Positions 3,435-40,534 of a DNA stretch of 64,000 bases are shown here, piece after piece. The stretch covers positions 1 through 64,000 of the IMG/VR virus record IMGVR_UViG_3300050821_002279; one strand, 5' to 3'. A program made the position numbers and the translations under genes. The notes below the pieces were generated by a model. It saw only the letters and a program-made list of their open reading frames with translations, was not told the origin of the DNA and ran no database searches. Source of the DNA: a virus. Position 1 is the stretch's first letter, and each line of letters opens with the position of its first letter.

Positions 3435-3619
3435 TGCCCGACCTTTGCTTGCTGAGTGTTGCCCTGATAATACTCAGGTTTCTTGCTACGCTTGCCCGAC
3501 GTGCCCAAAGCTTGTTCGATTGCTTTGGTTGCTTTCTCACAGGAAGACCCTTTGAAGCCTACAGCCTCAATCGAGACTTCCCCATCTGGTGAAACAGTGA
3601 CGATTACTTGCTTGTTCAT
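3431..3619 (-). CDS. DUF2997 family protein
   Basis: VTVSPDGEVSIEAVGFKGSSCEKATKAIEQALG...KPEYY matches the DUF2997 pattern. Confidence 0.85.
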   Translation of the reverse strand: MNKQVIVTVSPDGEVSIEAVGFKGSSCEKATKAIEQALGTSGKRSKKPEYYQGNTQQAKVGQ

Positions 3620-4017
3620 TAGAATCGCCCCCCGGAAATAAGGACATTAATTGCGCCGGTTTTGGTGATTTGCCTAGTGACTGCGTGGCCTAATCTTCTG
3701 GCTGACATTTCAGCTTTATTTACGCCATACATTTGCACTAACCGCTTCCCGTTCTCCCCGATCTCTTTTGCGACCGATCCGGCCCAGAAGTCTGTCTGCA
3801 TTTTGTAAGTGCCCTTTGGCTCCCTGGTGAGAATGACATCGTACGGCCCGTCGAGCTTCACGTACGCATCGCAGTCAACCATTGTCCCGCCATAGGTGCG
3901 GCCCTGTACTTTCTGCCCCATTGGAGCGCGAACAAGTTGCTTGTGAAGATCCCGACACGCCAGGGACAGCGCATCAAGATCCCTGATTTCGCATTTGATT
4001 TCAACTAAATGGCTCAA
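3619..4017 (-). CDS. DUF1257 (Ycf35-like) protein
   Basis: TTG start after an AGAAAGGATCAAA RBS gives (M)SHLVEIKCEIRDLDAL..AC...DFW...L.QMY, the DUF1257 pattern. Confidence 0.8.
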   Translation of the reverse strand: MSHLVEIKCEIRDLDALSLACRDLHKQLVRAPMGQKVQGRTYGGTMVDCDAYVKLDGPYDVILTREPKGTYKMQTDFWAGSVAKEIGENGKRLVQMYGVNKAEMSARRLGHAVTRQITKTGAINVLISGGRF

Positions 4018-36594: not shown

Positions 36595-38874
36595 ATGTCT
36601 TACGTCGGCGGAGAAGGTGATTACGGCTTGGAGAGTCTCCAGCTAAAAGAAAACGGAGGCGTTGCGGTTCCCGAGACGCGCATGAAGTCTGCGGCCCAGG
36701 TGCAAGACTTTGGCCGTCGCCTGTGGTTCAATGATGAGAAACGTTCCTTAAAAAGAGGCAAGGTAAATGGGCTCGTCGGTGGTTTTCCGCCGTACCGCAA
36801 TTCGAAGCTTCGGGATGCTGGGCTCGCGGCCAACTGTAACGCCAACTTCGGCACCGCTTCTGCCTACATGGAGAACGGTTCAGGAGCATACTACGATCTT
36901 TTCTCCGAAGCCCCCGGCACTGTTGGCATAAAAACCTCTCACGGCACGGATGAGCAAAGAGATGATTATTCCCGCATCATGTCGTCTGAAGCCGATAAGA
37001 TTTTCGCCAAAGACGATCTTTGGGATTACGAGATGCAAAGGAGTCAATGGGAAATGACGCTGCACGGTCCCGGGCCATTAATCTTCGAAGATGCTTTCAA
37101 AGTGCTTCCGCGTGCTGTCGGGGCTGGCGATTTCAAAGTGCCCGAACGAACCAAGGCTGATGCCGGGTATTACGAAATTGTTTGGGCTGATGTCGATTAT
37201 TACCCGCCAGAGCTGTACCAGTTTATCAAAAACGAGGCGGCGGCGGCTCAGGTTGGATGGGATGTCGATTACACTCAGCGTTGCATTGCAAACGCGATGG
37301 ATATTCGGCAACCAGAGCAGCGCGGGTACGACTGGGAATTTTACCAACAGGAAATCAAGAACAACAGTCTTAGCTATTACGACGATTCAAAGGTTATTCA
37401 CGTCGGCATTTGCTGGTGGAAAGAGTTCGATGGCAGGATTACCCAGGCAATCGTTGAGCGGGAGAGCACAACGGCAGAAGCTAGCACGGACGATTTGAGC
37501 AAGGGCGATGGGGGCGGGGTTAAATTCCTGTTCATCCACATAGGCCGGTACGCGAACTTTCGGGAAGCGGTTCATCCGATGTACTTCGACCGTGGCAACG
37601 GCGGGTACCATCATTCGGTCACGGGGCTTGGCTCGAAGATGTATTCGGCGATGGAATTCGAAAATCGTGGCCTTTGCCGCCTCTGGGACGGCGTATTCGC
37701 CCCCAAAGTCCTCTTCAAGCCGACAACCACGGAAGCCTCTCAGAAGATGCAGCTTGCCCACATGGGCAACTACGGCGTCATTCCCGCTGGATGGGAGGCA
37801 GAGGACATGCCGATTAATGGTTATATCAACGAGGGCTTGGCGATGTACCGGGCATCGTCGGACCTGATGCGCTCGAATCTTTCGAATTATCGGCAGCAAC
37901 CGGAGCCACAGAAACCCGGAAACCCGGAAACAAAGTTTGGTCGTCAACTCGATGCTGCCGCGCAATCCAGCCTTTCGAAAACCACGTTTAATCGGTACTA
38001 CCGACAGCTTGATTTGCTTTACGCCGAGATTGTTCGACGGCTTTGCAATCTCAACTCGACGGATAAACGCGCTCAAGAATTTCAGCAGCGTTGCATGGAT
38101 CAAGGCGTTCCAAAGGAATGCTTCGGTCGAATTGAAAGTGTGGAAGCAATTCGGGTCGTTGGCGAAGGCAGCGCGTTTCTTCGAAAATCTTCTCTTGGAG
38201 AGATGGGCAGTCTTGTGCCTGGATTACCAGAAGAAGGACAGCAAGCCTGGAAAGACGATATGATTGCCGCGACGTGCGGTCAACGCAGCGTCTCGCGGTA
38301 CAACCCAAGGAAGACGCCGGGGAAGATGCCGAATGACCAGCAATTCATGGCGCTCGAAGGCGTTTGCATGATGAAGAACGGCATTCCGCCGATTGTCACG
38401 TCATCGCAGAACGCGGTTACTTTTGCAGCCGCATATCTAAACGCTGGCGTGCAAGCCCTGCAAAGCGTCCAGAAGGGCGGAAACCCGGCAGAAGTATTGA
38501 AGTTCCTGGGACTGTGCGGACCCGCGATTCTGGCGCATCTAAAGCGATTTGCCAAAGATCCGTTGCGGCAGCAGGTTTTCAAGGCGATCTTAAAACAGTT
38601 TCAGCAGTTGGCTAAACTCACAGACCAATTGAAGAAAAAAGTTCAACAGATGCAGCAAAAGCAGAAGGAACAACAAGACAAGACGCAACAAGCGATGTCC
38701 GACCAGCAGATCGCCACTCAAAAGTTGAAGGGTGACGAAGCCAGAAAAAACGCGAAGCTTCAATTCCAAATCAAGAGGGATGCAATTAAAACGCGCTCTC
38801 AACTCGCCATTGCAGACGCCCAAGCGGCTTCACAGATTCATAGAAGTAATTCGTTAGCTGCTTTTCAAGAATAA
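36595..38874 (+). CDS. portal protein
   Basis: 759 aa after TerL, AAGGAG RBS, helical N-terminus, Q-rich coiled-coil C-terminal barrel typical of podovirus portals. Confidence 0.75.
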   Translation: MSYVGGEGDYGLESLQLKENGGVAVPETRMKSAAQVQDFGRRLWFNDEKRSLKRGKVNGLVGGFPPYRNSKLRDAGLAANCNANFGTASAYMENGSGAYYDLFSEAPGTVGIKTSHGTDEQRDDYSRIMSSEADKIFAKDDLWDYEMQRSQWEMTLHGPGPLIFEDAFKVLPRAVGAGDFKVPERTKADAGYYEIVWADVDYYPPELYQFIKNEAAAAQVGWDVDYTQRCIANAMDIRQPEQRGYDWEFYQQEIKNNSLSYYDDSKVIHVGICWWKEFDGRITQAIVERESTTAEASTDDLSKGDGGGVKFLFIHIGRYANFREAVHPMYFDRGNGGYHHSVTGLGSKMYSAMEFENRGLCRLWDGVFAPKVLFKPTTTEASQKMQLAHMGNYGVIPAGWEAEDMPINGYINEGLAMYRASSDLMRSNLSNYRQQPEPQKPGNPETKFGRQLDAAAQSSLSKTTFNRYYRQLDLLYAEIVRRLCNLNSTDKRAQEFQQRCMDQGVPKECFGRIESVEAIRVVGEGSAFLRKSSLGEMGSLVPGLPEEGQQAWKDDMIAATCGQRSVSRYNPRKTPGKMPNDQQFMALEGVCMMKNGIPPIVTSSQNAVTFAAAYLNAGVQALQSVQKGGNPAEVLKFLGLCGPAILAHLKRFAKDPLRQQVFKAILKQFQQLAKLTDQLKKKVQQMQQKQKEQQDKTQQAMSDQQIATQKLKGDEARKNAKLQFQIKRDAIKTRSQLAIADAQAASQIHRSNSLAAFQE

Positions 38875-38911
38875 AAAGAAAATGACTGCCCAAAAAATCA
38901 GGCAGTCATTT
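38872..38911 (-). terminator. intrinsic terminator closing the pentamer array (possibly bidirectional)
   Basis: Minus strand AAATGACTGCC-loop-GGCAGTCATTT followed by TCTTTT. Confidence 0.8.
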
Positions 38912-39320
38912 ATCTGACCACACCATGACTTTACTTACCAGAGATTAGCTCACCATAGCGCACTGCATCCTGCCAGTCCCGAACTTGCCAATCCTGATTG
39001 TTCCAAACCTTACCGGCTTTTCAGCCCGTGCCTTACCAAACCAAACCGGACCCGGCCTGAGAATGGAGAGCCACAACCCGCCAAGTCTCTCCATGCCATA
39101 TCATGCAACTCCACTACCTACCGCCCCACGCTCGACCTCTGCCAACCGGAACGCGCCTAAGCAGACCGGCCAAAAGGCCCGTACCAAACCTAACACTTCC
39201 GAACCACTCCGAAGCCAGCCTGACCGCACTCAACCATTCCAAACCATGCACGATCTCGCCGAAACCAGCCTTTGCTAACCGGACACGAGCCCACACTACC
39301 GCACCACTCCTGAGCGTGTC
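38910..39320 (-). ncRNA. downstream GGN-NN pentamer array (3 units: 29, 29 and 21 pentamers); putative guide RNAs
   Basis: Strict 5-nt register within each unit; 46 of 79 pentamers start with GG. Units are separated by GGCC-TTTT-GGCC and GGCT-GAAA-AGCC hairpins. Confidence 0.8.
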
Positions 39321-39322
39321 CG

Positions 39323-39955
39323 TCACAGATCGAGGATTTTGAAACCCACGATCTGAAATCTTCCGAAAGTTGGACGAAAATCCCCAACGCCGATTAACTT
39401 TCCGGCCTGCGTGATAACCTCGTTAAGCAAAGTTGGACTGACATACTCGGGAAGGTTGACCATTAATTGAATTTTGGCCGTCCACCCAGCTTTCATCGCC
39501 GGTCTCGTTCGAGTGATCGCATTTCGCTGGATCACAACCCGTCTTTTATCTTCGTAATCCCAATCCTTAACGCCAAGGCTTGCGAGGTTGGTAACGCTCA
39601 CAACCGCCGCCTTGAACAGATCCGCAGCAGACTTTCTCGGACTTCGCGGGTCTTGGCGAAACTTGGATGCGGCGATGATACTCATCCGTAGGTACTCACC
39701 GGGGATGGCAAGGTTGCCTTTCTCGTCACGATAAACATAACTTTCCAAGTTATCCGACTTCTTTGCAGCACTGCCCTTCTTGGCTTTGGCCTTTTCTTCA
39801 ACCGCTTCACAATTCCAACGGTGGAAAAGAAGATCCGCACTTCCCTGAATCTGAATTTCCGCAATGTACGGAATTTCCATTTCGATTGCATCTTTAGCAC
39901 CATTTGTGGGACAACGATCCCCGCCGAGTTCTGTGGTTTTTGTCGCTGATTTCAT
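39323..39955 (-). CDS. solitary Cas7/RAMP-like protein (210 aa)
   Basis: IQIQGSADLLFH first strand, NLAIPGEYLR (IPG motif), RRVVIQ..ITRTRP thumb, W.A...L strand, C-terminal G-rich loop AGKLIGVGDFRPTFGRF. Confidence 0.8.
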   Translation of the reverse strand: MKSATKTTELGGDRCPTNGAKDAIEMEIPYIAEIQIQGSADLLFHRWNCEAVEEKAKAKKGSAAKKSDNLESYVYRDEKGNLAIPGEYLRMSIIAASKFRQDPRSPRKSAADLFKAAVVSVTNLASLGVKDWDYEDKRRVVIQRNAITRTRPAMKAGWTAKIQLMVNLPEYVSPTLLNEVITQAGKLIGVGDFRPTFGRFQIVGFKILDL

Positions 39956-39958
39956 AAT

Positions 39959-40028
39959 TAACCATTCCACGCCGTAACACGCCGCGACTGGCCAAGGCAA
40001 TGACGGCACTGCCGCATCCAGCCCTGCC
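39959..40028 (-). ncRNA. upstream GGN-NN pentamer unit (14 pentamers)
   Basis: GGCAG GGCTG GATGC GGCAG TGCCG TCATT GCCTT GGCCA GTCGC GGCGT GTTAC GGCGT GGAAT GGTTA, ending 3 nt before the ATG. Confidence 0.7.
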
Positions 40029-40156
40029 GTGTTTCTGGCAACGCACCCGCCCGTCGATTGCTGTAACGCAGCAGTTGGGAACCGCTACCAAACGGCGAAC
40101 GAGTGCAAATTTGTTTTGGTTGTTTCATCCGGTTACAGTCGGACTTTACGCTTGCT

Positions 40157-40184
40157 ACTTTATCAAAAATGGCATTACTGTCAA
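40157..40184 (-). promoter_or_regulatory. sigma70 promoter of the Cas7-like unit
   Basis: TTGACA-N16-TAAAGT with extended -10 TG. Confidence 0.7.
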
Positions 40185-40534
40185 CTAGAATTTATGCCCG
40201 AAGGTTCCACCGATACCGACGATCAAGGTTTGCCAGAAGACGAGCCGGATGATTCTGATGAAGACGAGTGCGAAACTCCAGCCGATATTTTCCGCAGCCG
40301 CACCGAAGACTTAGGCGATAACCCGCAAACACGATAATGCCAGATAGAGAACAGGGTAAAATGCTTATGAGTGACTTCGGCTGGTGCCTGGAGTCGGATA
40401 AGCCTGAGCGCAAAGACCTTTTATGGGTGCCTACGGGGACGAAGGATATTTACGTTTGGCAAAGCGATGAAGACGGCTGGATAAAGATTCGACCGCCGCA
40501 GACGTTTCCGTGCAGAGAACTCAACCACGGTTAG

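Follow-up and report, generated by a model that had tools for sequence, protein, structure and literature searches.

What kind of element is the G/U-rich array that follows a short gene on the minus strand of this viral genome, and what do the two small hairpins that interrupt it contribute? The window examined here comprises 64,000 nt (positions 1 to 64,000 of IMG/VR record IMGVR_UViG_3300050821_002279). The locus at 38880-40184 (-) is a phage VIPR system. VIPR (Viral Interference Programmable Repeat) is a CRISPR-related RNA-guided DNA-silencing system that was first described in 2026 (10.64898/2026.04.26.720920). The Vipr protein polymerizes on a vrRNA composed of GGY-NN repeats with one protomer per repeat; pairing with DNA is made by the NN dinucleotides and passes over every third base of the target (10.64898/2026.04.26.720920; 10.64898/2026.04.26.720927). 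The class itself is already in print (bioRxiv 10.64898/2026.04.26.720920); the array form with tetraloop hairpins is a new variant.

The vipr gene (39323-39955, -) was recognized by homology and predicted fold and encodes a 210-aa Cas7-like RAMP protein. A profile built from 66 diverse Vipr homologs matches one solved structure, PDB 36pp_D, the 'SUSP1 Vipr protein' (E 1e-17, residues 32-206). As a single sequence, the window protein matches SUSP1 Vipr with an E value of 1.5e-5, and its G-loop GVGDFRPTFGRF is aligned to GVGDWRPRFGRF, which places D-F-R of the loop on D177-W178-R179 of SUSP1 Vipr. The AF2 model has a pLDDT of 93.9, and a Foldseek search with the AlphaFold model returned Csm3/Cas7 subunits as the best matches (E ~2e-7, probability 1.0). 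The protein thus combines the RRM core, glycine-rich loop and thumb of a minimal RAMP protein with homology to SUSP1 Vipr. Searches of the 210-aa ORF and its neighboring genes with Pfam and PADLOC gave no match, PHROGs assigned the ORF to an unnamed family only, and none of the more than 7,400 homologs of the window Vipr carries a Pfam domain. A TRAP- or CsrA-type protein sponge, a G-quadruplex array, an R-loop origin and an SSAP binding site had also been considered for the array; these candidates were dropped once the protein was found to be a Vipr homolog.

The genes that flank the VIPR unit lie on the opposite strand on both sides, and the array strand carries vipr as its sole gene-sized ORF between the promoter-like site and the terminator, with no vap accessory gene in this interval. 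A vap gene is 'typically' part of VIPR loci according to the published text and is hence not strictly defining (10.64898/2026.04.26.720920). The genomic surroundings of the gene vary. The window vipr sits in the head module, and relatives (numbered with the prefix L) in L005 (3347 onward) and L007 (2447 onward) sit in a recombination module, where vipr adjoins a Sak4-like ATPase or YqaJ-like exonuclease gene, as judged from N-terminal sequences only. In several relatives (L008-L012), a ~65-aa ORF follows vipr and precedes a conserved, apparently structured non-coding stretch of ~350 nt located ~200-600 nt downstream.

The VIPR unit is laid out as one transcription unit. A consensus scan of 38800-40400 detected a single promoter-like site, TTGACA-16 nt-TAAAGT (40157-40184, -), a candidate by consensus match only (10/12 positions), and no other site, internal or otherwise. 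A leader vrRNA tract of 14 pentamers (39959-40028, -) stops 3 nt short of the vipr start codon, and most hairpin-bearing relatives likewise have an upstream tract, of 10-18 pentamers. Downstream of vipr, the minus strand is G/U-rich and has a GG at 5-nt intervals between 39310 and 38915; the period-5 GG signal at the array (power 2.06 against a 99.9th percentile of 1.12) is the strongest on either strand of the 64-kb window. GGY-NN vrRNA tracts stand beside vipr on the same strand. By the GG-phase parse, unit 1 (39181-39310, -) contains 26 pentamers, unit 2 (39028-39167, -) contains 28, and unit 3 (38915-39014, -) contains ~20 and is followed by an intrinsic terminator with a 14-pair stem and a T run (38880-38911, -), which provides the last unit with a 3' hairpin. 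With just one promoter-like site and one terminator, all units belong to the same primary transcript.

The array register breaks at two places only. A dynamic-programming parse of the GG phase between 39310 and 38915 found exactly two register-shifting insertions, one per hairpin, in agreement with the initial annotation, which had placed the only breaks at two like elements (39185-39165 and 39032-39012). Hairpin module 1 (39165-39185, -) reads GGTACG-GGCC-TTTT-GGCC-GGT and consists of the handle GGTAC, a lone G, a GGCC/GGCC stem (39179-39176 paired with 39171-39168) that encloses a UUUU loop, and a closing GGT that starts unit 2. Hairpin module 2 (39012-39032, -) reads GGCACG-GGCT-GAAA-AGCC-GGT, with the handle GGCAC, a lone G, a GGCU/AGCC stem (39026-39023 paired with 39018-39015), the GNRA loop GAAA and a closing GGT that starts unit 3. 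The two hairpins lie 153 nt apart, and the fourth stem pair is C-G in module 1 and U-A in module 2, as first noticed. The folding energies are -10.5 kcal/mol (z -2.1) and -8.6 kcal/mol (z -2.3), respectively, and the minimum-energy structure of the naked RNA (448 nt) retains both hairpins. Module 1 is homologous to the first hairpin of the relative L088.

The proposed unit sizes hold less well. Counts of 29, 29 and 21 pentamers had been reported, and these values are only approximate because the tracts hold 26, 28 and 20-22. Unit 1 has 26 pentamers when counted from the first GG pentamer and 28-29 when the count starts at the stop codon or takes in the in-phase 5' arm of the stem; unit 2 has 28, or 29 with the stem arm. 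The equality of '29 and 29' depends on where the start of unit 1 is set. As a rule for the family, equal length fails: internal units in relatives range from 56 to 146 nt.

Two further hairpins in the locus stay in register. A 10-nt G-less stretch in unit 2 leaves the register intact, and the unit contains an internal hairpin, GGAGAGAC ... GGCTCTCC (39063-39094, -), with a folding energy of -12.1 kcal/mol (z -1.0), which is weak when taken alone. The C-rich 3' arm of this hairpin accounts for the only G-less pentamers in unit 2 (TCCAT TCTCA), and the hairpin overlaps the 3' end of a guide block, described below, that matches CBASS genes. In the leader, a 7-bp hairpin (GGCAGTG-CCGT-CATTGCC, 39993-40010, -) likewise has a C-rich 3' arm that explains the G-less pentamer TCATT. 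Neither internal hairpin was seen in relatives, and their folding z-scores are weak.

The boundary hairpins recur in related phages. The comparison set comprised 14 and then 80 IMG/VR loci with Vipr relatives at 56-85% identity. In nearly all of the 80 loci, GG-pentamer tracts lie directly upstream and/or downstream of the vipr homolog on the same strand. Some related arrays exceed 100 pentamers with few breaks and have unbroken runs of up to ~60 pentamers; L122, for example, has 100 pentamers with a single break, and the register elsewhere is kept for up to ~60 consecutive pentamers. Register breaks in the closer relatives are very often the same hairpin module, which recurs with covariation in 16 loci besides the window. 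In a distant Vipr clade (L108, L115, L129, L132 and L134), the breaks are mostly single-base insertions without hairpins and may correspond to the published 'staggered' arrays. Thirty copies of the module, from related phage arrays and the window, give the consensus GGWWC-G-[GG..stem]-tetraloop-[stem..CC]-GGY, with the handle observed as GG(T/A/C)(T/A/C)C. The trait is present in three separate Vipr subclades, and sister clades include hairpin-free arrays. Approximately two-thirds of the hairpin-bearing relatives have, as judged by eye, a terminator-like stem and T run within ~30 nt of the array end.

A covariance comparison across homologous arrays had been proposed as a check, and it revealed covariation in the stem. 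The eleven stem variants, from GGCC/GGCC to GGACUCU/AGAGUCC (4-7 bp), are all fully paired. GAAA makes up most of the loops, with GCAA, GUAA and UUCG among the others. In the alignment of 30 copies, C10 and G11 before the stem are invariant, as are the outer GG and CC; standard pairs account for 100%, and the two inner pairs of the stem show double-sided changes in 16 cells. The covariation score is 0.343 compared with 0.062 in shuffles and collapses once the partner column is slid. The 30 aligned copies were chosen with a pairing requirement, and a test anchored on the flanks alone (CGGG..CCGG in related arrays, pairing not required) is free of that bias: the inner positions are both paired in 16 of 18 cases, a result that none of 2000 shuffles reached. 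Such a distribution of stems and loops is what selection on a folded RNA typically produces. In 26 of the 29 scored copies, the length of the lone G plus the hairpin is 3, 2 or 4 modulo 5; this count omits the 30th aligned copy (L084), which came from an IMG/VR pattern scan. In that scan, a degenerate 21-nt hairpin pattern gave 71 matches, four in pentamer arrays and 67 by chance.

The guide code of these arrays can be read by comparison with candidate targets. When all arrays were compared with all loci of the set under the one-base-skip rule, 110 matches scored 15 or higher versus four for reversed-order decoys, and the skip code therefore operates in the Vipr clade of the window. The NN letters specify the DNA target, with one base skipped per repeat, usually at the wobble position, as in other VIPR systems. 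The target matches in related arrays are only 9-13 pentamers long and lie within longer tracts. In L004, the first vrRNA (3597-3690) has 15-19 pentamers with a 10-bp hairpin after them. This vrRNA agrees with the G-loop-coding 3' end of vipr genes in rivals (L003, L090, L100, L107 and L126) at 20/20 letters and with the window vipr at 39357-39386 (+) at 17/20 letters. VIPR-against-VIPR targeting has been described in the VIPR preprints. No self-target was found on the 76,955-bp contig with 10-pentamer windows at 17/20 letters or better.

Three guide blocks in the window are shared with other phages. Block A (39261-39305, -) forms the 5' end of unit 1, and its nine NN dinucleotides are identical to those of a block in L095; the GGY letters differ at 9 of 27 positions. 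Block B (39181-39225, -), also in unit 1, has nine NN dinucleotides identical to L088; the counted run of ten pentamers includes the in-phase stem arm, and 9 of its 30 GGY letters differ. Block C (39078-39127, -) comprises pentamers 9-18 of unit 2 and is common to L095, L092 and L101. Shared NN runs number 84 in the real lists and six with reversed-list decoys, and between phages with a Vipr identity of only ~65%, the shared blocks differ in their place within the array. Across the homologous blocks in L088, L095, L092 and L101, the NN letters are identical to those of the window and 27-45% of the GGY letters differ, often to a single G. Retention of the NN letters while the GGY letters change is a sequence signature of selection on the guide code. 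Because the GGY letters diverge between homologous blocks, the repeat scaffold tolerates more than the consensus suggests. Degenerate pentamers can also pair with targets, as TGCAT, GCAAA and GTCAA in L135 match L040.

The positions of the blocks bear on how many guides a unit contains. Block B ends at the handle of hairpin 1, and likewise in L088. Block A has no hairpin after it in the window; in L095, its copy has GGTTC-G-hairpin after it. Block C occupies the middle of unit 2 without an adjacent hairpin, such that only block B of the three abuts one. Because the shared blocks span 9-10 pentamers and the target matches 9-13, units of 26-28 pentamers can be read as two or three guides in a row; the hairpin-bounded tracts look like holders of two or three guides of ~9-10 pentamers, not one. 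The bimodal tract lengths (~12-15 and ~24-29 pentamers) would fit with a loss of intervening hairpins. The initial annotation had treated the hairpins as boundary elements that divide the array into individual guides. Covariation, stable tetraloops, recurrence and loss of register bear out the boundary elements; the composite units speak against one guide per unit.

Target searches differed among the blocks. The block A pattern gave no match, and the block B pattern gave one match (L175), which is off the wobble alignment and probably arose by chance. Scans with pentamers 14-21 of unit 1 and 18-25 of unit 2 returned chance matches only, without extension. The NN string of block C, read with one base skipped, matches the antisense strand of the P-I-S-I-I-I-T-T-L-A motif in CBASS CD-NTase genes. 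Its consensus has five exact matches in IMG/VR (L176-L180), all antisense of this motif, and PADLOC identifies these viral-contig targets as CBASS cyclases (Cyclase, E 1e-131 and 7e-124), with the Pfam domains SMODS and DncV-like NTase. The window copy agrees with the five at 19/20 letters. In bacterial genomes of many phyla, the 10-pentamer consensus has at least 120 exact matches (L181-L300) where approximately one is expected by chance, and the window's own variant has no exact match there. The skipped bases in the bacterial targets fall at wobble positions, where all four letters occur. Block C suggests, from these matches, that phages silence a CBASS defense gene with an RNA guide. CBASS as a VIPR target is not mentioned in the 2026 VIPR preprints examined.

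What, then, would the hairpins do? In the published systems, a tail on the vrRNA forms a cap at the 3' end and is required for complex formation (10.64898/2026.04.26.720927; 10.64898/2026.10.15.759431). We consider it reasonably probable that the window hairpins form a boundary module that interrupts the Vipr filament and, by extension from the published tail, serves as a minimal 3' tail that anchors or caps it. A single transcript would run from the promoter near 40184 through the leader tract, vipr and the three repeat tracts to the terminator at 38880. Judging from the published structures, each Vipr protomer would bind one GGY-NN pentamer and present its NN for gapped DNA pairing, and the hairpin module would interrupt the filament between tracts, each of which would carry two or three blocks of ~9-10 pentamers. 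Because the module lengths are off a multiple of five, a filament with one protomer per pentamer cannot stay in phase across them, which makes the modules real filament discontinuities. The module is read as a minimal tail because the tracts have 3' hairpins and the published pseudoknot tail caps the 3' end. By analogy, it may play the role of the ~40-nt type II pseudoknot tail in anchoring or capping the RNP, and it may protect the 3' end of the upstream tract, as the terminator hairpin would for the last one. As a counterpoint to the cap, the 4-bp stems of the window are short and would be weak barriers alone. Since blocks A and C are conserved without an adjacent hairpin, some guides can do without one, and the comparison with the tail may hold only in part.

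Several other explanations of the hairpins were weighed. An unlikely one takes them as endonucleolytic processing signals, cut by a Cas6-like activity of Vipr or by a host RNase, that release one guide per unit. The single primary transcript, the conserved module with its invariant C-G and GG flanks, and the hammerhead ribozymes that separate units in arrays of other VIPR types (10.64898/2026.04.26.720920) all agree with cleavage, as does the placement of block B and of block A in L095, each of which is separated from a following hairpin by exactly one handle pentamer. However, the 26-28-pentamer units hold two or three conserved blocks, two-thirds of the blocks lack an adjacent hairpin, and target matches in related arrays cover just 9-13 pentamers of longer tracts; the unit moreover encodes no nuclease, and Vipr is described without Cas6 elaborations (10.64898/2026.04.26.720920). 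More doubtful still is the reading of the module as a proto-CRISPR repeat, in which a ~30-nt unit, GGT-NN-GGTTC-G-hairpin-GGTAT, would do all three of stopping and anchoring the filament, marking cuts and swapping cassettes, with the array RNA possibly cut in a Cas6-like manner by Vipr itself. If true, the array would represent an extant stage between the continuous code of VIPR and the repeat-spacer organization of CRISPR, and the multi-guide cassettes swapped between phages would include a broad-spectrum anti-CBASS guide.

The tetraloop hairpins could also be general RNA stabilizers against 3'-to-5' exonucleases that shield the vipr mRNA and the array without relation to filament or guide boundaries. 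GNRA and UUCG hairpins are generic stabilizers, and the arrays also finish in terminator hairpins. This account is improbable in view of the invariant sequence around the hairpin, which is coupled to the pentamer code through its handle, its lone G, its GG...CC stem and the direct restart with GGY, the confinement of the module to arrays of certain Vipr clades, and the poor block that 4-bp stems present to exonucleases. We give still less weight to modules that act at the DNA level as homology patches or scars of guide-cassette exchange between co-infecting phages, with an incidental RNA hairpin. The same blocks do appear at different array positions beside divergent Vipr proteins (~65% identity), and three separate subclades share the trait, but compensatory stem changes and the preference for special tetraloops indicate selection on folded RNA, and the shared-block edges of A and C do not coincide with the window hairpins. 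A chance origin of the hairpins, as inverted repeats of G-rich DNA, is very hard to credit. GG...CC 4-bp stems are indeed more frequent inside arrays (7.7/kb) than outside (3.9/kb), and chance explains 67 of the 71 degenerate-pattern matches in IMG/VR; nevertheless, both hairpins lie at the only two register breaks, share their flanks and recur with covariation in 16 other loci. With 16 of 18 paired in the flank-anchored test against 0 of 2000 shuffles, the hairpin is no chance feature.

The boundary module, read as a minimal tail, has its closest counterpart in the type II VIPR systems. Type II vrRNAs comprise 9-16 repeats followed by a conserved ~40-nt pseudoknot tail and are represented by SUSP1 and a Pseudomonas fulva prophage (10.64898/2026.04.26.720920; 10.64898/2026.04.26.720927). 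As in Escherichia phage SUSP1, the vipr gene of the window is flanked by one upstream and several downstream GGY-NN tracts; recognition is gapped with one base skipped, and a structured conserved element follows each variable tract. The window nevertheless lacks this 9-16-repeat, pseudoknot-tailed form of vrRNA. Its tracts hold 20-28 pentamers, and in place of the pseudoknot tail the relatives and the window have a 13-19-nt tetraloop hairpin with a one-pentamer handle (the insertion in the window is 13 nt). In addition, the window unit has no vap gene, and its Vipr is only distantly related to SUSP1 Vipr.

Other VIPR architectures include arrays interspersed with hammerheads (types I and V), staggered arrays with a 1-nt overlap and single vrRNAs (VIPR preprints). 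The window array resembles the hammerhead-interspersed and staggered forms in having several guide units in one array with a recurring separator. However, its insertion is too short for a ribozyme core, and no hammerhead or other Rfam family was detected in 38800-40300, either at the gathering threshold or at E values up to 1. It also differs from staggered arrays in the absence of 1-nt register steps, although more distant relatives have 1-nt breaks. Tetraloop or stem-loop punctuation is not mentioned in the VIPR texts examined.

The array also recalls CRISPR arrays of types I and III, in which a short hairpin module stands between variable guide segments of one precursor and a RAMP-family gene adjoins. 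In contrast to CRISPR, the window has two non-identical modules with different stems and loops, variable spacing and several guides between modules; there are no cas1, cas2 or cas6 genes, and the guide is read discontinuously in 5-nt steps. Near-identical repeats of 23-50 nt, uniform spacers and nearby cas genes are all absent from the locus: Tandem Repeats Finder detected no CRISPR array, and PADLOC returned nothing for the neighboring genes.

VIPR was described only in 2026, and cataloguing of its array architectures continues. No smaller vrRNA boundary would be known than a 13-19-nt hairpin tail with a handle of one pentamer. Such a minimal boundary would be useful for engineering compact multi-guide arrays and bears on the proposed descent of CRISPR repeats from VIPR-like RNAs. 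If long tracts hold several guides, vrRNA calling and target prediction would change in a clade of more than 7,400 homologs. The guide that matches CBASS genes suggests that VIPR is used against defense genes of hosts or prophages, in addition to rival mobile elements.
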